From: a phage
Length of the DNA: 50,078 nucleotides
Direction: 5' to 3' (one strand)
Sequence record: NC_107631.1
The notes below the pieces were generated by a model that saw only the letters and a program-made list of their open reading frames with translations, made no database searches and was not told the DNA's origin. Made by a program: the position numbers and the translations under genes. This document shows, piece after piece, positions 951 to 48,193 of this stretch (positions within the stretch are counted from its first letter, which is position 1; each line of letters begins with the position of its first letter).

Positions 951-2519
951 ATGTTTAATATTAAGCCAAAACTGAATTACCAACAGATTATTGAGATCGC
1001 AAATAGCACTGGAGTTAATCCGGTGGCGATCGCAATTCGTGAAAACAGTTATGGGGATTCAGTTTCTTTTTGGCAAGATCCGATCGATATCAACAGCGGA
1101 AACGATAAGTTCCCTCTGATTTCGTTAGGTGGCGATAACCTGGTATTCGAATATGCAAAAGCAAAAGCTGAATCAGTCCAGTTCCCGGTTTCATCCGCGT
1201 ATGCTCATTTTATCGGTTGCATCTCAGCCGCGATGCTCGGGAAGTTTTGGGTGCAATATCATGGAGAAGAACAGCCGACAGCACTTTACATGGTAATCAG
1301 TCAGCCACCATCAACAGGTAAATCAGCGATTAACTCAGCGGCGATTACACCTATGCGTGCGGAGATTCAGCGACTGAATGAAGAGCGCAAAAAGGAACGT
1401 ATCCGTTTAACAAGTCAGCTACGTCAGGTCGAGAAGGAAATTAAAAACGATCCGAAGGGTAACACGACGGCGGCGCTGTACGAAGACAAGGAAAAACTGG
1501 AAGAAAAGATCAAGAAGATGGCTGATATTGTTTTTGCGGTATCAGATCCTACACCTGAAGGTCTTGCGAAGGTGGCGGCTGTTCAAGGTCACTTCTCCGT
1601 AATCTCTGATGAGGCAACAGCAATAAATACATTGCTGGGACTGACCTATGGCGGTTCTGATAAGAAATCAAACAGCGAGCTTATCCTTAAGGCGTGGGAT
1701 AAAAACCATATGGAGGTCGCGCGTTCAAATCAGGACAACAACTTATCTCTTTGCCCGGTCGGTTCGATCTGCGTCATTGCGCAGGATGAAACAATCAAGG
1801 GCATAATGGACGCAGGCCAGCGAGGTATCGGTGTATCTGAGCGTTTCCTATTGGTTCGCGAGGAACCGCTTTTAGGTACTCGTATTCTTTGCGATGAAAA
1901 TGGTGATGCGCTGTATAAGGAAGTCGATCGAGGGTTGGTGAGTAAATATTATCGACTCGTGCACAACATTATGAAAGAGGACAGCGTTGTTCTCTCTGTA
2001 AGCCGTAATGCTATGCGTGAATTGAACCTTGCGCGTCAGGCGATGGAGCCGGATTTCGCCGCAGGGGGTAAATACTCTCACTCAATGCTACGCGGTCATC
2101 TCGGCAAGTTCGATAAGCACGCCTTGCGTATTGCTTCAGTTCTCCACACAATCAAGAATTGGGAGGGTGAATCACCGAACCGTTCCAATCGTGAGATAGA
2201 TCTTGAAACAATGCAGGAAGCAATCATGATTTTTAATGAGCTTTCCAGAACTTATCTGTCGTCTGCCAGCGCCGCCGGGTATGCTGGTGATGAGGCTGAA
2301 TCTCGTAAGCTGATTGATGTTATCACTGAGATCGCAAAGAAGAACAAAGGTCGCGCACCTATTCATAGCATTGTTGCAAAGTGCCGTAACGTTACGCCGT
2401 TCAACGGTCAACAGAAAGTAGCTGAGCGAATCGACAGCCTGCTGATCACGCTCGAAGAGATGAACTACACTTGCCGCATTGATGATATTGTTTTCATCAA
2501 TCCTCGACTGATGGGTTAA
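951..2519 (+). CDS. putative replication-associated P-loop NTPase (DnaB-like Walker A)
   Basis: Start moved to Met22 of the track ORF, preceded by AAGGAG; ISQPPSTGKSAINSA resembles the DnaB RPSMGKTA Walker A; function is inferred only. Confidence 0.5.
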   Translation: MFNIKPKLNYQQIIEIANSTGVNPVAIAIRENSYGDSVSFWQDPIDINSGNDKFPLISLGGDNLVFEYAKAKAESVQFPVSSAYAHFIGCISAAMLGKFWVQYHGEEQPTALYMVISQPPSTGKSAINSAAITPMRAEIQRLNEERKKERIRLTSQLRQVEKEIKNDPKGNTTAALYEDKEKLEEKIKKMADIVFAVSDPTPEGLAKVAAVQGHFSVISDEATAINTLLGLTYGGSDKKSNSELILKAWDKNHMEVARSNQDNNLSLCPVGSICVIAQDETIKGIMDAGQRGIGVSERFLLVREEPLLGTRILCDENGDALYKEVDRGLVSKYYRLVHNIMKEDSVVLSVSRNAMRELNLARQAMEPDFAAGGKYSHSMLRGHLGKFDKHALRIASVLHTIKNWEGESPNRSNREIDLETMQEAIMIFNELSRTYLSSASAAGYAGDEAESRKLIDVITEIAKKNKGRAPIHSIVAKCRNVTPFNGQQKVAERIDSLLITLEEMNYTCRIDDIVFINPRLMG

Positions 2520-7492: not shown

Positions 7493-7536
7493 ATAATGCC
7501 AGATTCCATCCCGGCAGTTTTAACAAGAAGTGCTAT
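7493..7536 (-). promoter_or_regulatory. dyad-motif middle promoter upstream of dam
   Basis: ATAGCAC-TTC-TTGTTAA then CATTAT/TATTAT 28 nt downstream. Confidence 0.5.
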
Positions 7537-10006: not shown

Positions 10007-10045
10007 ACACGGCATACAGTAAACGTTTTTAGCAAAAAGTGCTAT
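10002..10045 (-). promoter_or_regulatory. dyad-motif promoter driving the helicase operon, overlapping the divergent early promoter
   Basis: Dyad TTAGCAA-AAA-GTGCTAT (ATAGCAC-TTT-TTGCTAA on minus) with TATTAT 28 nt downstream on the minus strand; the same dyad lies in the 5'UTR of the plus-strand transcript. Confidence 0.5.
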
Positions 10046-10057
10046 AGGAGAATTAAG

Positions 10058-10510
10058 ATGAGTATTCAACGTATCGCAGAGTCAACTGGTGAAATCGATA
10101 AACGTCACATCAATGGTAACAACGGAACACGACGCGGTAAAGATAAAAAGCCACGACAGCGCTGCGGATTCTATATTCATAAAGAAGAAACACGCGCAGG
10201 ATTGCGAGCACGACTTGATGCGCTTATCGAATATTATGGTGGCCCTGCGGCCTGCGCAAAGGCTCTAAAAGTTAGCAATCAGACGGTGCAAGGCTGGAAA
10301 GAACGCAATATGATTTCATGGCAAGGTGCTGAAGCTGCGCATCGTGCTTACCGCCGACAGGGGTGTAAAGGGTTTAGGGCCGCATGGTTGCGATTCGACC
10401 TGAAGTTTGACGGTAACGGCAAGTGCATTGAGAAGCGATGCAAGAACAAGAAGTTTATGCGAGTGGTGAAGAAGGAAGATATCGGGACGACCAATAGCAT
10501 TTTTAGTTAA
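10058..10510 (+). CDS. HTH DNA-binding protein, candidate transcriptional regulator
   Basis: Cro/C1-type HTH signature (AKALKVSNQTVQGW); basic protein; RBS AGGAG. Confidence 0.6.
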   Translation: MSIQRIAESTGEIDKRHINGNNGTRRGKDKKPRQRCGFYIHKEETRAGLRARLDALIEYYGGPAACAKALKVSNQTVQGWKERNMISWQGAEAAHRAYRRQGCKGFRAAWLRFDLKFDGNGKCIEKRCKNKKFMRVVKKEDIGTTNSIFS

Positions 10511-11607: not shown

Positions 11608-13473
11608 ATGGCTTTATATAGACGCGGTACTGCATCAATGGATGCAGACGGCACGGTTCACGGAACCGATACAAAATGGAAAGATCAGCTTGCTCTGATT
11701 CGAGTCGGTGCAACTATCGTATTCCTGGAGCAACCGATTAAGCTGGCGGTAATCAGCGATATTGTGAGCGATACGGAAATGAAGGCTATCTCTACGGATG
11801 GTCAGACTGCAGCTGACGGAAAGTATGTGATCTTGCTTAGCGATTCACTAACCGTTAACGGGCTTGCGCAAAACGTTGCTGAGACGCTTCGATACTATCA
11901 AAGCAAAGAGACTGAGATCGCGGCAGCTATAGACCTGATAAATCAGCTTGACATGACTAAACTTGAGCAAATAGTTACTGAAGTGAATCAGGCAAAATCT
12001 GATGCTCAAGATGCGCAAGGTCAGGCTGAACTAGCTCGTGATGCCGCTAACGCTGCGCGCGATGAAACCAACTCAATCAAGGACCAGGCTCAGGGAATTG
12101 TTGACGGCGCTGTCGATGGAATTAATGCCGCAAAAGACCAAGCGATCACAGATGTAGGCGCTAAAGAATCTGCGGCGGTTACGCACATCGACACGGAAGA
12201 GGCGGCAGCTATTCAGGCAATCAATGACGCTAAAGGCGATCTATCCGGGTATGTTAATGACGCTCAAACAGCTGCACAAACAGCCACATCTGCAAAGAAC
12301 GATGCTCAGTTGGCGCGTAATGATGCTGTTAGCTCAAAAGATGCGGCGGCGGTAAGTGCTCAGGAAGCGAAAGACGCAGCAAATAGCATTAATGCTGAAA
12401 ACCTTTTAACTAAGGATGGAAACCTGGCAGGTTTAACAGATCCAGAGGAGGCAAGGTACAACCTAAAACTGACTGAGTGGGGGTTGTTAAGTGACGCATC
12501 ATCTGCTGGTGTTTCTGATATAAACGCAATATCTGTAAACTGCAATTACAGCGTGCCACCAAAAAACACCAATAATTTAACTGGTACATATCCATTTGAG
12601 CACGTTCAAAATCTTGATGATGGTTGGTTAATTCTTGAAACACGTATGCATCCAGATCCTAATTATGGAATTCAGAGGGCTACTCAATTCACAGGCAATT
12701 CCGCTGGCTCCGTTAGCGTGAGATGCAAGATCAATGGAGCTTGGGGGAATTGGGGTCAGGAAAGAGGATCGCATGGATATCTTGCAAACGTAATACTTGA
12801 CAGAGCAACATTTAGATCTGTCGGTACTGCTTCTGGAGGTGCTGGGGCGTTGGTTGGCGGTGGAGTTGAGGGTGGTGCGTATCAACAATGGAGAGATAGA
12901 GCTACTGGATTACTGGTTGAGGCAATTGCGAAAGATGCAGCGGTATCAATATTCAAGAGTGTAATGTGGGGCCAAGATTGGATTGGGGGTCTTGATTGTG
13001 TTCTATGGGGTGCTGGCAGTAAGGAGATGAAACTTTATACTGGTGGCGCTGAGTTCACTTTTAATTACGCAGGAGTAGCTACAGCAGCTCAGTGGACAAG
13101 TACATCTGATATCAGGCTGAAAACAAATCTTAATAAAATTGAGTCGGCAACCGAGAAAGTGGAGAGGCTCGTTGGTTATACTTACTACAAGAGAAACACC
13201 ATTGAAGAAACTGAAAACTCAAGGTATGAGATTGAGGCTGGTATAGTAGCTCAGGATCTTGAAATGGTTCTACCTGAGGCTGTTCTTAGCATAAACAGCA
13301 AAGGTGAACTCGACCCTAAAAGAGAGGGTATTAAGAGTGTCAATTATGCTGGAGTTGCGGCACTTCTTGTTAACGCATTTAACGAGCAGAAGAAAAGGTC
13401 TGATGAAATGGAGTTAAAAATAAATGAAATGATAAAGGAGATTGACGAAATCAAAAAACTATTGAACAAGTAA
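11608..13473 (+). CDS. tail fibre protein with C-terminal intramolecular chaperone (peptidase S74-like) domain
   Basis: N-terminal coiled/repeat region rich in D-A-Q/A-A-N-A; C-terminal SDIRLKTNL..VGYTYYKRN..EAGIVAQDLE resembles the self-cleaving chaperone domain of T5 pb1/endosialidase fibres. Confidence 0.8.
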   Translation: MALYRRGTASMDADGTVHGTDTKWKDQLALIRVGATIVFLEQPIKLAVISDIVSDTEMKAISTDGQTAADGKYVILLSDSLTVNGLAQNVAETLRYYQSKETEIAAAIDLINQLDMTKLEQIVTEVNQAKSDAQDAQGQAELARDAANAARDETNSIKDQAQGIVDGAVDGINAAKDQAITDVGAKESAAVTHIDTEEAAAIQAINDAKGDLSGYVNDAQTAAQTATSAKNDAQLARNDAVSSKDAAAVSAQEAKDAANSINAENLLTKDGNLAGLTDPEEARYNLKLTEWGLLSDASSAGVSDINAISVNCNYSVPPKNTNNLTGTYPFEHVQNLDDGWLILETRMHPDPNYGIQRATQFTGNSAGSVSVRCKINGAWGNWGQERGSHGYLANVILDRATFRSVGTASGGAGALVGGGVEGGAYQQWRDRATGLLVEAIAKDAAVSIFKSVMWGQDWIGGLDCVLWGAGSKEMKLYTGGAEFTFNYAGVATAAQWTSTSDIRLKTNLNKIESATEKVERLVGYTYYKRNTIEETENSRYEIEAGIVAQDLEMVLPEAVLSINSKGELDPKREGIKSVNYAGVAALLVNAFNEQKKRSDEMELKINEMIKEIDEIKKLLNK

Positions 13474-14686: not shown

Positions 14687-15751
14687 TTACTTATTTTGGT
14701 AACGCACCCATGATGGCGTTTCAAGTTCGATCTCGCTTGCGTCGCCAGCGTACCCAGGCCAAACATCCATTTCAGAGCAAGCCTTGTAAGTGTGGACTAC
14801 GCTAATGTACTGGTTACGACCGATCCTGATTTGCTCCATAGTCATACGGTAAGCAAGTGCGATGTAAGGCTCTTTTTTCTCCTGCGTAAGCAATCGAACT
14901 ACGATCGGGATATCTTCCGGAAAGTTTCCTTCAAAAGCGCCAGCCTGGATTGCACGTCGTAGCAGGTCATGCTGCAAGGCCATTTTTAGATAATACCCGT
15001 GATTGTATGCCAGTCTAGGGAACTCTAACGGGTTAGCGCTCATCGTGGTTTTGAAGTCAGTGATAATTAGCGCTTCAGGGAAAATAACGTCTTCAAATAC
15101 CGGATCGCCGTTCTCATCATAACCAGTCAGCACGCGGCCTGGAACATTCTCTTTGTAGTCCAGATGGTCAAGACGAACCTTAACTTTGACGCCGGATATC
15201 TCACCGAAGATTGAGATCTCACGCTGAGCCGTCTCGCTATTGATGCACGCTTCATGATCCTGATTTTGCTCAAGGATTGCCCTCATCTTCATGCAGGCGT
15301 CGTATTTGTCAGCGTCAACCAATTTCTTTCCTTCAGCGCGCGCCTCGGCCTCAGCAATTAGTTCAATCAGATATTGGACGTTAAGGTCTTCACCACAATC
15401 AACCATCATTTTGATGAGGTCCGGGTACTGCTTACCGGATGTACCTTTCAGGCCGAATGATTTTAATTTAGATGCCAGCGCCGCCTGCGAAGTAATCAGA
15501 TCCTTAAACTCTGCCGGAGCCGGGCAACGGGCATACGATGCAGTAAACAGATCTCGGCTCTCAAAGTTGGTATGCGACTGAGTGCCGAACTCCAGCGCTT
15601 TCGTTGTCTCATTCTTCTTGAATCGCCAGTTAGCCGGGCAAGTTTGATAGATTTCTGCAAGGCTCGATCCGCTCACATACTCTGCCGCCCAACCTTCGTT
15701 GCTATGATACTCGTCATTAGAAAGCTGACTTGATGTGAATACCTGGAACAT
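14687..15751 (-). CDS. PD-(D/E)XK exonuclease (recombination partner of ERF)
   Basis: IITDFKTT motif of RecB/Cas4-type nucleases; first gene of an exo-erf-ssb operon; AGGAG RBS. Confidence 0.6.
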   Translation of the reverse strand: MFQVFTSSQLSNDEYHSNEGWAAEYVSGSSLAEIYQTCPANWRFKKNETTKALEFGTQSHTNFESRDLFTASYARCPAPAEFKDLITSQAALASKLKSFGLKGTSGKQYPDLIKMMVDCGEDLNVQYLIELIAEAEARAEGKKLVDADKYDACMKMRAILEQNQDHEACINSETAQREISIFGEISGVKVKVRLDHLDYKENVPGRVLTGYDENGDPVFEDVIFPEALIITDFKTTMSANPLEFPRLAYNHGYYLKMALQHDLLRRAIQAGAFEGNFPEDIPIVVRLLTQEKKEPYIALAYRMTMEQIRIGRNQYISVVHTYKACSEMDVWPGYAGDASEIELETPSWVRYQNK

Positions 15752-15782
15752 TGCGTTTATCTCCTTTGTTTACGATGAGTCA

Positions 15783-15810
15783 ATTATAGCCATTAACAGC
15801 GTTTAGTCAA
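15783..15810 (-). promoter_or_regulatory. strong sigma70 promoter for the recombination operon
   Basis: On minus strand TTGACT-N16-TATAAT. Confidence 0.55.
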
Positions 15811-16029
15811 TAGAATGCATGTAATTGGCGTGTAATTGCGTGTCTATATCGCTCAAGTTACAACCAGTGTCAACGCAATCAATATCTTAGCCATGTTTTT
15901 ATGTGGTGTCTATTGCGTAATACTTGTAACAGCATTTTCTTAGAAATACACGGATATCCATGAATAGAATCAATATTGATTAAATTTTGAACATATATGA
16001 TAGAAATTTGACGAATCAATAAAATCACC

Positions 16030-16200
16030 TGTTACACGATAGACAACTGTTACACAGCAATAATTATATATATAAAGCTAAAATTAAATATTATCTATCT
16101 ATATATATTATATAGAGTTTTTATCATATCCCTCTGCGGTCGGGTGGGGTGGATTTTGTAACACCCGTTCCGGTTACAAAAATAGACACCTGTTACACGA
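16030..16200. repeat. AT-rich block with (TA)n runs and repeated CTGTTACAC / GTGTTACA sites
   Basis: ATAGACA(A/C)CTGTTACAC occurs twice plus inverted TTTGTAACAC; TATATATA runs; divergent intergenic region. Confidence 0.6.
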
Positions 16201-16219
16201 AAAAATTGTAATCGCACTA

Positions 16220-16248
16220 TTGCAATAAAAGTAAATGCGACATACAAT
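16220..16248 (+). promoter_or_regulatory. sigma70 promoter for the lipoprotein gene
   Basis: TTGCAA-N17-TACAAT. Confidence 0.5.
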
Positions 16249-16277
16249 GCAATCACACTAACGACGAGGACATACAA

Positions 16278-16505
16278 ATGAAAAAGTTAATCACCATTAT
16301 CGCTGCGGCATTCATCCTGACTGGTTGCTCATCAATGCCTGAGCGAACTTGTACGGCAATTTATGAATCAGGAGGCTCAGAGTACTCGGTTTACGTTTTT
16401 GGATCTAAGATGCGAGGAGAGGAGATGCTATTGCGTGCTGGATACCCATTCTCCTTCAACTACGTATCAGAGAAAAACTTCAAGTCTCACGATTGCTCGA
16501 TATAA
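16278..16505 (+). CDS. small lipoprotein, candidate Cor/Llp-like superinfection-exclusion protein
   Basis: Signal peptide with lipobox LTGC; two further Cys; 75 aa; divergently placed beside tail-tip genes, as for T5 llp and T1/phi80 cor. Confidence 0.55.
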   Translation: MKKLITIIAAAFILTGCSSMPERTCTAIYESGGSEYSVYVFGSKMRGEEMLLRAGYPFSFNYVSEKNFKSHDCSI

Positions 16506-16530
16506 AAGAAAAGCCCCGCAAGGGGCTTAG
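16505..16530. terminator. bidirectional intrinsic terminator
   Basis: AAGCCCC-gca-AGGGGCTT with A/T runs on either side. Confidence 0.7.
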
Positions 16531-17216
16531 TCATACGCTGCTGTGTTGATTGCTGTTATGATATTTCCATTATTCGTGGTGTTCATTATCTGACCCGCAG
16601 CTGTGGTTGCTGCTGCATTTATCCTAGTTGCGCTCCCGTTGTACCTGCATGAGCTGCCTGCTGTTGAGTTTCCTATTATGGGTTGCCCAGTTGGCAACCT
16701 GCCAATAACAACTTGATAGTTGCCAAGTATAGTTGGGACAACTGCGTAGCTTCCGCTGAGTGTTGTGTCTATGTTTAATCCACCGCCAGCGTATCCAGGA
16801 GTGCCGACTGTAACCAAATCACTAAGGACTTTTGTCTCATTTGTCAGCACTAGTTTTCCTGACGAATCCCATATTGCCATACCCCAGCTCGGTAGTGGCT
16901 GCTCAAATATGGCAAATATGTAGTATGTTAGCGTGTATGATTGGTTTGCTGGATTTGTCCCCCTTATATAAACAGTTCCAACATTGGGTCCGCTTCTGAA
17001 AGTAAAGGCTGAAAGCGCGGTCCCCTGCTGCGTGTTTGTTGTTTTGCAAAAAGCTATAACCGGAACGCCTGTAGGTATCCGAACATATCTCTCCGCAACC
17101 TGTGAACCACTAACATTTACTGATTGAATTTCCCCTCTCGCATATAAGGCGAACGGCGTGGATAACGGGGTTATGAATGGGTTTCCGTTTACATCTATAA
17201 AAGCACCGTATGACAT
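16527..17216 (-). CDS. putative distal tail / receptor-recognition accessory protein
   Basis: Gly/Thr/Asn-rich beta-type composition; downstream of the tail-tip J-like gene; N-terminus paralogous to 17216..17548. Confidence 0.4.
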   Translation of the reverse strand: MSYGAFIDVNGNPFITPLSTPFALYARGEIQSVNVSGSQVAERYVRIPTGVPVIAFCKTTNTQQGTALSAFTFRSGPNVGTVYIRGTNPANQSYTLTYYIFAIFEQPLPSWGMAIWDSSGKLVLTNETKVLSDLVTVGTPGYAGGGLNIDTTLSGSYAVVPTILGNYQVVIGRLPTGQPIIGNSTAGSSCRYNGSATRINAAATTAAGQIMNTTNNGNIITAINTAAYD

Positions 17217-17548
17217 TAATCATTCTCCAGATATGCTATTAAGTAACAGTTTGATGATGGGTACACGTTTGGCCCGGGTGAGTTTGTTGGCGTTACTGTT
17301 ATCGTATTACCGCTAGCAATAATTTTCCTGCCAGGCCCACTAATGGCGCCATCGTCAAGGCTTATAACGTAGTTCACATGCATACCAGGAGGAACTTGAT
17401 AGCTGAACGATGCTGAATTCTGTCCTGCTGACAAAAAGTTCCAACCAACAACCGTAACAGGCTTAATTCCATAGTTATTATAAACGCCATTTGCGTCCCA
17501 AGTTGATATACCGTACGCCATAATAAATCCTCCAAAAGAAAAGGGCAT
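17216..17548 (-). CDS. putative tail accessory protein
   Basis: Small Gly-rich protein downstream of the J-like gene; N-terminal similarity to 16527..17216. Confidence 0.4.
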   Translation of the reverse strand: MPFSFGGFIMAYGISTWDANGVYNNYGIKPVTVVGWNFLSAGQNSASFSYQVPPGMHVNYVISLDDGAISGPGRKIIASGNTITVTPTNSPGPNVYPSSNCYLIAYLEND

Positions 17549-17566
17549 CGAGAGATGCCCTTGATA

Positions 17567-20500
17567 TTACCATGAACCAGTCAACCTGCCAATCTGAACC
17601 CTCAGACGACCACTCGCATCCCTAACAGATATTGTGGTATTAGTTTGCTTCATTGCACCCTCACCGTCACTTCCGTAGTTTTCGAATGTTCCACCCTTGT
17701 CAAGCCTCCAGCCGGACTGGTTAAAGACATAGTTATTCGACTGAATGAAGTTTCCAATCATCGCATTCGTGATGAATCCGTTCTTAATGATTGCGCTATT
17801 AAGAATCACCTGATTACCTTCAACAACGAAAGGATACTGAGTCTGACCGTTCATCCCTGTCATGATTGCAAATCGTGACGCCTCGAATAGAATTTGCGCC
17901 TTAACCGCAGCACCTGAACCAATAAGAGACATAGCCATACCAGCACTGTATTCCTGGCCGTTATACTTCAGACCCAGCTTGACGCCGTACATTGCACCAG
18001 TCGAATCCGCATTACTCCACGAATCAAGTTTTTGAGAAAGTGCCGCCTCATTATCACCAAGCCTCGCGCTTAATGACAAGTCAGCTTGCGTTCTCGCCTC
18101 AGTCTCGTTTGCTATAGCCTCTCTGATATCAGTCAAACTTGCCTGGATATCATCACCAATCTCTGCCCTGAGTTGGTCGATTTCACGCGATAGCGCTCCA
18201 GTCTCAGTTGCGATAACTTCACGCAATTCGCTGTTGCTAGCGCTAATCTGATCTCCAAAACTTGCCTTCAATTGCTCGATCGCCGTCACTCGTGCCTGAG
18301 TCTCATCAACAATAAGTTTCAGTGATTTCGTGTACTCGGCTTTTCGTTTTCCGTTCTCCCTCTTCATATAGATCGCGTCTTTGTCATTGGCGAGCGCGTT
18401 TTCTATTGCCGCCTCTGCGTTAGCTGCGTTCTGCGCAGCGTTGTCGGTTGCGTTATCAACAAGCCACTTGTAACCCGGCGAGTTTTCGATATCAACAGAA
18501 ATCTCTCCGATGATATCGTCAACGTTTGTTGATGCCATGCCCCTGACAAAATCAGTCCACTGAGAAACGTTACCGATCCTGTCAACCGTCCTTACCCGAT
18601 ACCACACAATATTCCCTCCAGGCATCGGTGAGTGATAATACTCATGCTGCGGATACGGAATCAAAGAAAGCAAACTTGCGTTATCCACTGTTCCATCCGG
18701 AGACTGTTGCAACTCCGTATAGGCCGTATCTCCAGAACCATCAGAGAACCCCCATTTTGTACGGATACCAAAAACAACATCATCTGTAGCTGTAAGGTTA
18801 ATCGGCCTCCCTGGCTCTCCTTGCTTGCCTGTCAACGTCGCTGCGACGATATTTGACCATCCGGAAGTTGTACCGGAACCAGCGACGGAGCGAACGCGAA
18901 CCTGATAGTTGCCAGCGTAAATACCCTCAACGTAAACCTCTTTGTTTGCCGTCTGAGGAACGTTTTGCCAGTTGCCATTATCCTTTCTCCACTGCACATC
19001 ATAGAAAACTGCGTACGGAACTTTATCCCAGCTAACAATCATAGTTTCTACGCTCATCCCCTGGACGATTCGTGACTCAGAGGACACTTTCACGTTTTCC
19101 GGTTTAGGAATCTGATCTGGCTCAACGATGCTCGTCGGTCGGTCGTCAATGTTTACTCCGTAATCAATCTCATCGTACTTGTTAGGATCGTACTCCACCG
19201 CAGTAATTTTGTAGGTAAATTCCTCATCATCATCACCCTTGTCGATTTTGGTCACGACGTACTGCTGCAAAGCAAGGTCGGTGCGGTCGATAGCGAATAC
19301 CGTGTTAGGCTTCACAGGAAAGCCAAAGCCGATGTTAACCTCTATAGTCTTGCCATCCGCACTAACACTTGAGATTGTGCGCTTTACGGGCTTGCCATCG
19401 GGCTTATTTACGATGATGAAGTCACCTGCGCGAGCATCGACACGGAACGGCAAGAAAATCTGACTTCCAGACACTTCGAGCAAGCGCCCTGACAGGTTCA
19501 TAGTCAAGTTACTTGACCAGAAGTTATCAGCTATAGCTACAACATCTCCAATTGTCGGAATCATACCCTCAAGCCCGGTAGCAAAGTTTACCGTAGTGCT
19601 GCGAAGGTTTGTTTTCAGAATCCATCGTCCGCGACGGTTAGCTTCACTTCGACGTGTGCACCCGATCGCTGTAATGCTCGTTACGTTATTCCCGAACCGT
19701 AGAGTTGCCTCTCTGTCGAATACTGGCTCAACGTCCTGCTGATACATGTTTTGCTCATCATCAAACATAACGTTGCACGTCGTGTACATACTTTTCTCGC
19801 TTGCGAAAGTATAGGAGAAGTCACCGTTAACAACGTTGTCGTTAGTGAAGATGTACGCAGGCTCACGCGGTCTGTCGATGATTACAGAAATGCTCTCACC
19901 ATTCCAAAAACTCATGCCACGGAAGATTGAGCAAATATCTCGAATCACTTTGTAAGCATCAGTCTGTGACTGAATTATCACGTCGCAAAGGTATCGAGGC
20001 TCCGTACCGCCTTTGCCATCAGGGACCATCTGATCGCAATATTGCGCCGCCTCATATAGCGCCCATTTATCGACAGATATTCCAAGCTCTTTCTGATCAA
20101 GCCCATAACGCTGATTAATCATCAGGTCATAAAGTACCCAGGCAGGATTATTAGTCCACGCCTTCTTAAAAGTTCCATCCCAATTTCCGTTATAAGTTCG
20201 TGATTCTGGATCATAGTTTGACGGAACGTTTACAATCTTCCAGCGCTTACGAATTGAGATCGTAGGTAACTGGTTTGGGAACATCTTCGAATCGAACTCG
20301 ACGAAAAGAAGACCAGTCAGAGGGTAACGGAATTTGGCATCAATCACCTCGGCATAGCTCTTTACCTGAATCGCGTCAACAACGTTCGAGTCGTTAGAGT
20401 CTGGAGTTTTACGAACGACTCTGAATATCACCTGATTGTTGAAGTTAGGTAGGTTTACACGTCTGCTTCGATCATAACCTGACATTGTTTTGCCTTCGAT

Positions 20501-27640: not shown

Positions 27641-27657
27641 ATAGCACTTTTTGTTAA
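27641..27657 (-). promoter_or_regulatory. dyad element immediately upstream of RBS
   Basis: TTAACAA-AAA-GTGCTAT on the coding strand, directly abutting CAACCAATCAGGAG. Confidence 0.5.
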
Positions 27658-27700
27658 AAGTTAAGTGAATAAAGTTGATAGGATGATTTTACAGAAATGA

Positions 27701-29607: not shown

Positions 29608-30008
29608 CCTCCACGGAGTCCTGTCATTAATGCGAATCGACCACGTCGTCGCGCCTTAAGCTGTTCGAACATCTTACCCCACGGCGTCGAAAGCATCATG
29701 TTTCCTGACTGGTTCTTCGTCACCTCTCCGAAAGTCTGGCTAAATTCACCGCTCAGGGAGAATGACGTAACGCGTCGTGAGTACGATTCAAGATCCTCAT
29801 CTTCACCTTTTAGCGCCCCATCAAGGAAAGCAAGGTGCAATGCATAAAGAGAAAGCGCCTTGATGTATGCATCTTTAAAGGTCTTCTGGCATACAAATAG
29901 CTCAGCCATTTCTACCCACGCATAAAGCGTTTCGTCTGGAACCTTACGAAGTGCCGGAACCAGCTTTCGCATTTGCTCAACAACTGCAATTAAAGTTTCT
30001 TGATTCAT
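29598..30008 (-). CDS. putative head-tail connector protein
   Basis: Position only. Confidence 0.35.
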   Translation of the reverse strand: MNQETLIAVVEQMRKLVPALRKVPDETLYAWVEMAELFVCQKTFKDAYIKALSLYALHLAFLDGALKGEDEDLESYSRRVTSFSLSGEFSQTFGEVTKNQSGNMMLSTPWGKMFEQLKARRRGRFALMTGLRGGCH

Positions 30009-30051
30009 AATTTACCCCCATAAAAAAGGCGCTACATGAGCGCCTTGATGA

Positions 30052-30339
30052 TTAATATTCGCCGCCGTCCTCAAGCTCTTTAACGCTTTTGCTATCCCAC
30101 GGATCTGGCTTCTTGATCTTTGCCATTTCATCGCGGATTTTGCGGTTGGTTGCACTGTCGTCTTTAACTTCGATTTCTTCGCGAGCAATTAAGCAACGCA
30201 GGCCAGGTAAATCAAGAACGGAAGCCGGAAGCGTGACCTCTTCATCTGGAAGAACTTTAGCAAAGGAACCATCTTCAAGACGGAACATCTGAAGAGCTAC
30301 ACCAACGTTTACGATAACAACAGTTTTTTCTTTAGCCAT
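30052..30339 (-). CDS. hypothetical structural protein
   Basis: 95-aa ORF after the major capsid gene; preceded by hairpin-T7-GGAG module. Confidence 0.4.
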   Translation of the reverse strand: MAKEKTVVIVNVGVALQMFRLEDGSFAKVLPDEEVTLPASVLDLPGLRCLIAREEIEVKDDSATNRKIRDEMAKIKKPDPWDSKSVKELEDGGEY

Positions 30340-30389
30340 TTTGATTTCTCCAATAAAAAAAGGGACTAACTAAGTTAGCCCCTATAATA

Positions 30390-40453: not shown

Positions 40454-40497
40454 ACTATATCAAATCACCCCATCGACGTTTTAGCAATTCGTGCTAT
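40454..40497 (-). promoter_or_regulatory. dyad-motif middle promoter
   Basis: ATAGCAC-GAA-TTGCTAA; TGaTATAGT extended -10 28 nt downstream inside inverted repeat GTCGATG..CATCGAC. Confidence 0.55.
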
Positions 40498-47493: not shown

Positions 47494-47608
47494 ATCTTTC
47501 TCCTCATTTTCAATATACACCATGATTAACATGTAACACTGTGTCTCTAATCGTAGTGTTACACGGCGACACGCTTGTGTCAAGGCTTGCGAGCCGATTT
47601 TAAGCGTG

Positions 47609-47635
47609 GTTAATCGTGTTAATCGTGTTAATCGC
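47609..47635. repeat. tandem direct repeat (GTTAATCGT)x3
   Basis: Three consecutive 9-bp units in the divergent control region, next to GTGTTACA sites. Confidence 0.7.
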
Positions 47636-47699
47636 TTTTCCCATATAAATATGAGCCGATAAAACTACTGTATATATAAACATGAATATAATAACCAGA

Positions 47700-47830
47700 G
47701 CATCCAACGATTAACATAGTAGACACGCTATACATCCATATTACAAATAATAGTATCTATATATATAAATAAAAAAAACACTTATATATTATATATATAC
47801 ATATATCTATATGTATATTATAAGGCGTAA
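47700..47830. repeat. AT-rich low-complexity block with TATATATA runs
   Basis: Extended TA-rich sequence resembling the block at about 16060-16125. Confidence 0.6.
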
Positions 47831-47911
47831 TTTGGTGTAATTTTGTCTACGATTGCGATTTAGGCAAATCATATACATGGATTAACACACAATCAAGCGT
47901 AATCGTAATTG

Positions 47912-47928
47912 ATAGCACTTTTTGCTAA
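47912..47928 (+). promoter_or_regulatory. dyad element without an obvious -10 partner
   Basis: ATAGCAC-TTT-TTGCTAA; no -10-like hexamer at +28 on either strand. Confidence 0.4.
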
Positions 47929-48116
47929 AAATGGAGATGACTACCAGGCGAACCGGGTAACACCAATTCCTCCCTCTCACAATCATTGCAATCTCAGCAA
48001 CAAATCAACCAACTGTTGCACACCATGCAATAATCACGTTTCATCATTCGCAATCAATAACAATCAAAATTATTCCACCTATTCCAGTATTGATGGAATA
48101 ATGAGCAATTATTGAA

Positions 48117-48161
48117 ATAGCATTTTTCGCTAACGACTTGACCAGGTTGTCAGGGTATAGT
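48117..48161 (+). promoter_or_regulatory. dyad-motif promoter (degenerate) for the rightward early genes
   Basis: ATAGCAT-TTT-TCGCTAA then TATAGT about 29 nt downstream; followed by CAACCAATCAGGAG RBS cassette. Confidence 0.45.
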
Positions 48162-48193
48162 TCGGGCCATCAACCAATCAGGAGAATCACCAT

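Follow-up and report, generated by a model that had tools for sequence, protein, structure and literature searches.

A conserved region between recE and cor of a T1-like phage: a candidate for one of two origin-like modules

In phage T4, the origins ori(uvsY) and ori(34) consist of a promoter and a downstream unwinding element. In the satellite phage P4, ori and crr are separated cis elements which share the short repeat TGTTCACC, and this repeat is bound by the C-terminal winged helix of the primase-helicase. For the staphylococcal islands (SaPI), the origin has been shown to contain penta- or hexanucleotide repeats that flank an A+T-rich region, with two or more per side and the two sides facing opposite ways; these repeats are bound by the winged helix of the self-loading Rep protein, and the initiator is an AAA+ helicase, of the SF3 type or, in SaPIbov1, of the SF6/MCM-like type (PMC9371898). 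For phage SPP1, two similar elements, oriL and oriR, were identified, each with direct repeats and an A+T-rich unwinding element; they are served by one phage initiator, and one of them is located in a long intergenic region (PMC6316719, PMC3485210). One of the SPP1 elements fires, and the second was proposed to stall replication forks and to trigger recombination-dependent concatemer synthesis via an exonuclease, an annealase and an SSB (PMC6316719, PMC3485210).

For T1 and T1-like phages, no published replication origin was found in the literature. T1 belongs to the seven classic T phages, and T1-like phages are notorious contaminants of laboratories and fermentations as well as candidates for therapy. 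Knowledge of their cis-acting replication or control sites would aid both their engineering and their containment. The authors of recent papers on the family could detect neither an origin nor repeats of the origin type (PMC11447400, PMC7718038), and the work presented here supplies two precise experimental targets. New are two precise candidate sites and a candidate initiator class for T1-like replication.

With its 50,078 bp, the window represents the genome of a T1-like coliphage (Tunavirus, Drexlerviridae) in full, and its identity to Tunavirus genomes is about 91-96%. Studied here is the recE/cor intergenic region at 15752-16277, corresponding to 29851-30377 in T1; together with its flanks it matched 64 phage records, including T1, with identities of 90-96%. 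In the recE operon, erf and then ssb are next to recE. The initial annotation had described a non-coding stretch of 0.5 kb between the recombination operon and a lipoprotein gene, and this was borne out, since the open reading frames within the spacer were not upheld as genes. One of these, coding for 60 amino acids on the minus strand, was rejected because of frameshifts in relatives. The other, of 49 amino acids (15879-16028, minus strand; CPTT1_049 in T1), is open throughout 18 Tunavirus sequences with numerous amino-acid changes; it has no conserved counterpart in other genera and is probably not a gene. In scans of the window, no Rfam family reached its gathering threshold, and ARAGORN detected neither a tRNA nor a tmRNA.

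To the right of the spacer, the cor cassette and the downstream genes (16287-17700) are mosaic among Tunavirus, with a pi of 0.3-0.4 compared to 0.02-0.1 leftward, and the mosaic boundary is sharp and placed just within the 5' end of cor (about 16290-16330). On the other side, T1 'orf26' (11608-13473, plus strand), located between ssb and the primase gene, is hypervariable among Tunavirus (pi 0.3-0.5). Its product contains an endosialidase-chaperone (Peptidase_S74) domain and is for this reason considered a tail-fibre-type protein.

The recE/cor region is a conserved cis-acting element which is very likely bound by a protein, as judged from its letters and those of its relatives. More tentatively, it is read here as one of two origin-like, helicase-loading modules, lying between a strong promoter, PrecE, and a second one, Pcor. 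The other module is found in a large divergent early region at 47495-48193, referred to as the second control region. The features of both are listed in Table 1.

Table 1. Features of the recE/cor region, of the second control region and of the candidate partner protein, in coordinates of the window
Feature	Position	Strand	Remarks
recE (exonuclease VIII)	14687-15751	-	ATG at 15751
recE RBS	15761-15766	-	AAGGAG
PrecE	15783-15810	-	TTGACT 15805-15810, 16-nt spacer, TATAAT 15783-15788; 11/12 consensus match
Array D	15820-15847	+	TGTAAT 15820, TGTAAT 15831, TGTCTA(T) 15841; spacing 11 and 10 bp
Single TGTAAC unit	15857-15862	-	
IHF consensus match	15877-15889	+	AATCAATATCTTA (WATCAANNNNTTR); one of 4 genome matches
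Array C	15907-15931	+	TGTCTA 15907, CGTAAT 15916, TGTAACA 15925; 9-bp spacing
A+T-rich spacer	15936-16028		palindrome AATCAATATTGATT at 15968-15981
Array B	16029-16055	-	TGTAAC 16031-36, TGTCTA 16040-45, TGTAAC 16049-54; 9-bp spacing
TA tract, candidate DNA-unwinding element	16057-16130		74 bp, 86% A+T
G+C-rich patch	16131-16155		variable in Tunavirus; weak hairpin-like, terminator-like sequence, then TTTTGT
Inverted repeat	16154-16181		TTTTGTAAC-N10-GTTACAAAA; 9/9 complementary; arms conserved, spacer variable
Array A	16173-16198	-	TGTAAC 16173-78, TGTCTA 16183-88, TGTAAC 16192-97; upstream of Pcor
TGTAAT unit	16207-16212	+	
Pcor	16220-16248	+	TTGCAA 16220-25, 17-nt spacer, TACAAT 16243-48; 9/12 consensus match
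cor RBS	16266-16270	+	GAGGA
cor (lipoprotein gene)	16278-16505	+	ATG at 16278
Second-region module	47720-47849		TA tract 47747-47822, 91% A+T
Second-region left units	47720-47745	-	TGTCTA 47720, TGTATA 47729, TGTAAT 47740
Second-region right units	47826-47849	+	CGTAAT 47826, TGTAAT 47836, TGTCTA 47844
DUF3987 helicase	951-2519	+	522 aa, MCM-like AAA+, C-terminal winged helix; candidate trans-acting partner

The arrays are composed of 6-base TGT units and are arranged around the TA tract. Array B, which comprises two copies of CTGTTACAC and the ATAGACA described initially, belongs to the invariant core, and its three units (16031-16054) are directed away from the tract on the recE side. On the cor side, the left arm of the inverted repeat (TGTAAC, plus strand, 16157-62) is the sole unit directed away from the tract, and it is followed by three inverted units. 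Array A includes the second copy of ATAGACACCTGTTACAC. Array D, nearly invariant in the 18 Tunavirus sequences, is located directly upstream of the -35 box of PrecE, and Array C corresponds to an ACA-rich zone found family-wide at +90..+140 in recE orientation. Only three 40-bp segments of the genome are less stable than that of the A+T-rich spacer, which is nearly invariant from 15972 on.

The repeats are confined to two loci. CTGTTACAC occurs three times (16029, 16047 and 16190), always on the plus strand and nowhere else in the 50 kb, with 0.30 copies expected and none of 100 shuffles reaching three. The 17-mer ATAGACA(A/C)CTGTTACAC is found at 16039-16055 and 16182-16198. As inverted copies, the recE/cor region contains one GTGTTACA (16157-16164), which is additionally present at 47532 and 47556, and one TGTTACA (15925-15931). 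The two direct copies of the 17-mer and the related sites near 47.5 kb were already reported in the initial annotation and were found again here; the copies of CTGTTACAC number three instead of two, and the inverted GTGTTACA is single. The repeats that had been called iterons are real; however, the repeated unit is not the 17-mer, but the 6-base TGT unit with a phasing of about 9 bp, organized in at least four arrays. The genome total of TGTTACA is seven, which is not above chance, but none of the seven copies lies outside the two control regions, and these account for 2.4% of the genome (binomial 5e-12). The ATATATA/TATATAT heptamers are confined to the same two regions (18 of 18). The composite TGTAWH-N2-4-TGTCT occurs six times, three times in each control region, with 0.56 expected; since it was derived from these very sites, only its confinement to two loci is informative. 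If the arrays were regulatory, these would be the only two loci of the genome bound by the respective factor, and they would thereby define the early control circuit.

It was considered whether the TGT units represent the TLS-type 21-nt repeat ATAGCACnnnTTGnTAAAA, for which 22 copies with up to three mismatches were identified in the genome (2.2 expected), mostly oriented along transcription, for example, at 7518-7536(-), 10027-10045(-), 27641-27659(+), 40479-40497(-) and 47912-47930(+). This was rejected, since no match with up to three mismatches is present within 15752-16277 and since the TGT units occupy two loci in contrast to the genome-wide repeat. ATAGCACnnnTTGnTAAAA holds a -35-like TTGnTA, and the copy at 47912 has no -10 box at 17 bp. 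This copy (47912-47930) abuts the arrays of the second region, and a loose variant is found in the cor promoter region. The function of the TLS 21-nt intergenic repeat is not known (PMC11447400).

A host DnaA-dependent origin of the oriC type was also rejected, because both DnaA boxes (TTWTNCACA) and GATC sites are absent from the two control regions. GATC is present 231 times genome-wide, and about 5.6 sites would be expected in the two regions from their length; the phage encodes its own Dam methylase. The GC skew, suggested initially as a check, gave no independent origin signal in its cumulative form, which follows the transcription blocks; it cannot decide on an origin, since it tracks the direction of transcription everywhere.

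Duplex stability was calculated as nearest-neighbour energy for the whole genome. The least stable segment is the TA tract of the second control region (47747-47822), followed by that of the recE/cor region. The TA-repeat runs and the easily melted tract of the initial annotation held up. Both tracts reach z values of 4.7-5.8 (4.7-5.4 for 16057-16130), compared to 3.5-4.0 for the next segment. The two regions share a module of about 90 bp in the same orientation, with the 16057-16130 tract being paralogous to 47722-47812. The second-region module is symmetric, with three units on each side which are all directed away from the tract (3+3, compared to 3+1 in the recE/cor copy). The symmetry of the recE/cor copy is lower, and this copy may act as a secondary site. 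The second-region module heads the operon encoding the MCM-like helicase and is located 2.7 kb upstream of the helicase gene; the distance of the recE/cor module to this gene is 13 kb. Among Tunavirus, the second-region TA module is nearly invariant, and the sequence and the gene leftward of it are mosaic between sub-lineages.

Several other elements were identified in the second control region. One of them is TGTTAATCG, a sequence of 9 bp repeated three times in tandem at 47609-47635; single copies in inverted orientation lie at 47524, 47708 and 47880. This repeat is found only in one Tunavirus sub-lineage (the window and the loci L052 and L057). CTGTATATATAAACAT (47668-47683) differs by one mismatch from the LexA box (CTGT-N8-ACAG) and is mostly conserved in the second-region sequences of Tunavirus. 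Further to the right, a non-coding block of 240 bp (47905-48140) shows strong conservation among Tunavirus, and nothing corresponding to it exists in the recE/cor region. The GenBank records of T1 and TLS both start inside this block, and thus within the second control region, and the pac site of the TLS authors (AGATTT) was placed there. Because of these record starts and this pac assignment, the block is probably the packaging-initiation region.

The position of the record starts and of the proposed pac also bears on the possibility that the recE/cor copy is a site at which an initiator binds without firing, acting as a fork barrier or recombination trigger like SPP1 oriR, or else a packaging or terminase site, with the real origin or pac near 47.5 kb. 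The lower symmetry of the recE/cor copy compared to the one at 47.7 kb and its location directly upstream of recE-erf-ssb are consistent with this explanation. However, the module shared by both regions is distinct from the second-region-specific block which holds the record starts, and across the family the recE-side copies do not differ from the other copies in their bilateral orientation pattern. In classical work on T1, a single pac series was described, which counts against a secondary packaging site. Even with the SPP1 precedent of a second element that stalls forks (PMC3485210, PMC6316719), a non-firing site is improbable.

Among the 18 Tunavirus sequences, the core at 15972-16130 is almost invariant (pi 0.027), and the segments beside it vary (15867-15971 and 16131-16180, pi 0.13-0.14; 0.144 for 16131-16180). 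In an alignment of 7 kb, the core is tied for the minimum with a pi of 0.023-0.032, compared to 0.04-0.10 for the recE coding sequence. In BLAST searches, no DNA homologues were identified outside Tunavirus, and none in plasmids and E. coli genomes; more distant relatives were therefore reached via the RecE and helicase proteins, which led to 46 loci for RecE, down to 42% identity, and to 80 loci for the helicase. Eleven representative loci across the range of RecE identity contain a long non-coding stretch upstream of recE, with a length of about 470-550 bp where measured, and in nearly all of them TA runs are centred about 300-360 bp upstream of recE. In TLS, the spacer of about 470 bp is retained, but cor is absent and the upstream gene is a co-directional tail gene, so that divergent transcription does not explain the long spacer. 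The two least stable segments of the TLS genome are again located in the same two regions, and in 14 further Drexlerviridae genomes the TA tracts are the least stable segments within the two loci examined per genome. For five other genus-level lineages, the two regions were likewise compared with each other; in four of them they proved paralogous without a change of orientation, with the similarity extending over as much as about 310 bp.

The orientation of the units was counted in zones for 72 non-redundant Drexlerviridae modules, as TGT versus ACA in recE orientation and with a background of about 0.5 TGT per 40 bp. To the left of the tract, the TGT/ACA counts are 205/51 at -90..-40 and 17/122 at -40..0; within the TA tract they are 55/53; to the right, 247/15 at 0..+40, 177/21 at +40..+90 and 54/137 at +90..+140. 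This zone-wise switch of strands holds separately for the recE-side and the second-region loci, and the spacing of the units peaks at 9 bp across the modules. The units themselves are lineage-specific, like TGTCCC, TGTTAT, TGTTTC, TGTATA or TGTTTA, and within one genome the two regions are more alike in their unit profiles than regions taken from different genomes (permutation p = 0.0004), but the correspondence is not one-to-one. The comparison with related phages proposed in the initial annotation has thus shown that the two-module design recurs in the sampled Drexlerviridae. In several non-Tunavirus lineages, a recurrent motif of the type CCGGCGTAAAT / TCCGCGCAAAATTT was identified to the left and to the right of the tract, in each case separating the outer from the inner arrays (L021, L043, L047, L020 and L065, the last being TLS); it may represent a second protein-binding site.

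These data were also considered in view of host factors and of repeats without function. The region contains one conserved IHF consensus, in which the N positions vary among relatives and the consensus positions are retained, and one Fis-like palindrome. The units resemble half-sites of ArcA (TGTTAA), PhoP (TGTTTA) and OmpR (GTTACA), as would be expected for a landing pad of IHF, Fis, H-NS or regulators of the OmpR/ArcA/PhoP type. Functionless slippage repeats would be consistent with the uniform units within single arrays, which could come from local duplication; this uniformity may in part be due to local duplication and expansion or to gene conversion. However, both explanations are very unlikely, with the diversity of the core being very low and the zone-specific orientation being kept in 72 modules despite units that differ between lineages. 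The 9-bp phasing, compared to the 10-11 bp of response-regulator sites, and the absence of DnaA boxes further argue against a host factor.

Upstream of both recE and cor, -35 and -10 elements of the sigma70 type with a spacing of 16-18 bp were identified by sequence match. The boxes of PrecE are conserved upstream of recE in distant genera of the Drexlerviridae (8 of 8 aligned representative loci), and Pcor is conserved in Tunavirus and annotated as a promoter in OL960578. The sigma70-like promoters recognized initially are thus present, but they are divergent and not back-to-back, as had been stated, since they are about 410 bp apart. All units of the recE/cor region are located outside the -35 to -10 span of both promoters. 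Repressor operator arrays like lambda OR/OL or the L5 stoperators were rejected, because the units of the recE/cor region lie outside the core promoters and because units are found at only two loci; a possible overlap with a core promoter exists once in the second region.

A role in transcriptional control only, with the TGT arrays as operator or activator sites through which a phage regulator times the early promoters, and with the TA tract as a promoter cluster, a bent or UP-like element or a looping spacer, is a serious rival to the origin reading and a real possibility. It is suggested by the position of the arrays, since Arrays D and A lie right next to the -35 boxes of PrecE and Pcor on the upstream side, the usual position of an activator, which at the same time counts against an origin. 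A TGTAACAC site of the second region overlaps what may be the -10 box of TTGACA-17-AACACT, a putative promoter of the leftward operon recognized by eye. In addition, the units read on the opposite strand (TAGACA, GTTACA) look like -35 hexamers, and in many lineages a TATAAT is present at one edge of the TA tract, reading into it. Both modules are located 250-310 bp upstream of co-directional early operons, and a Cro/C2-like regulator and small HTH proteins are encoded by the phage. Direct repeats of TGT-type units are a known type of site for winged-helix response regulators.

However, the TA tract is 90-250 bp away from the two good promoters, which is too far for an UP element, and the TATAAT at its edge has no -35 box at 16-18 bp in the lineages inspected. 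The second region is also not enriched in promoter-like matches (2 found, compared to 4.4 expected). Moreover, the left array is kept in TLS in the absence of a leftward gene, and the divergent promoter region of the Cro-like gene itself contains no units. An operator role alone also leaves unexplained why the tract of lowest stability is located between oppositely oriented arrays.

The initial annotation had left the choice between a replication origin and a multi-site operator, and both are still the leading explanations. The comparative evidence makes a functional protein-binding element with a tract of the unwinding type more probable and favours an origin-like design, based on the two-sided oriented arrays, the two paralogous copies, the conservation in the sampled members of the family and the presence of an MCM-like helicase with a winged helix; from this design we infer the function. 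Some features speak against an origin: the cor side has a single outward unit, which is parted from the tract by the variable G+C patch, and the TA tract is conserved base by base, beyond the needs of an unwinding element.

The replication genes of the phage are those for a T7-type primase, an SF2 helicase, the Cro/C2-like regulator (10058-10510) and the DUF3987 protein, and no DNA polymerase is encoded. The DUF3987 proteins have been placed among the SF6 replicative helicases and carry a winged helix at the C-terminus (PMC4889955), and DNA unwinding was shown for one of them (PMC11724360). In the phage protein, the C-terminus has a winged-helix topology which matched the winged helices of MCM, ORC and Cdc6 in a fold comparison; a profile search of the protein against PDB sequences gave nothing informative. 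As the best candidate, this helicase is predicted to bind the units via its winged helix. Against it stand the distance of 13 kb to the recE/cor module and the observation that the winged helix is identical in phages whose arrays differ in the dominant unit. Because of this identity, and because the match of units between the two regions is only statistical, co-variation assigns no binder.

On the origin reading, the following course of events would be conceivable. PrecE, strong and conserved, would drive recE-erf-ssb, and the weaker Pcor would drive cor. Under negative supercoiling, the 74-bp TA tract would melt first, and a phage protein, presumably the DUF3987 helicase, would bind the oriented units to the left and right of it. 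The helicase might then be loaded as two oppositely facing rings and melt the tract, so that the phage primase and the host Pol III could start replication, as at SaPI origins.

Among the described systems, the SaPI origin is the closest known design. Like the SaPI origin, the phage modules combine 6-base units in opposite orientation with an A+T tract (3+3 at 47.7 kb, 3+1 at recE/cor); the copy at 47720-47849 and the family-wide orientation pattern have at least two units per side, as in SaPI. The phage also encodes an MCM-like helicase with a winged helix, for which binding to the units is a candidate role. However, the SaPI origin is located immediately downstream of rep, and of the phage modules one precedes the helicase gene by 2.7 kb and the other is 13 kb distant from it. 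Two copies per genome, additional convergent outer arrays and the 9-bp phasing are further differences to SaPI, and the phage winged helix does not co-vary with the sequence of the units. The likeness suggests that a large family of virulent enterobacterial phages may employ MCM-like self-loading winged-helix helicases in the manner of the staphylococcal islands.

With SPP1, the T1-like genomes share the presence of two similar elements, and the recE/cor copy is located directly upstream of recE-erf-ssb. SPP1, however, relies on the separate origin-binding protein gp38, together with a loader and a helicase of the DnaB type; no recognisable counterpart of gp38 or gp39 is encoded by T1-like phages, and the SPP1 elements show no sequence similarity to the T1-like modules. 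A more far-reaching model would be that the T1 family uses paired SaPI-like origins served by opposed DUF3987 rings that load themselves at the 9-bp-phased TGT units, and that of these origins the symmetric 47.7-kb copy fires and the recE-side copy acts as a barrier or second origin leading to concatemers made by recombination, as proposed for SPP1 oriR; in this full form the model is speculative and rather unlikely.

To P4, the units of the TLS type (TGTTCAC) show a resemblance in the repeat; however, the P4 alpha protein is an SF3 primase-helicase fusion, and the P4 repeats are arranged differently from the phage modules. Like the T4 origins, the modules of many lineages have a -10-like TATAAT at the edge of an unwinding-prone tract, and since it reads into the tract as in T4, an R-loop primer is conceivable. 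Unlike in T4, no -35 or activator box was found at the right distance, and the T4 origins have no flanking repeat arrays.
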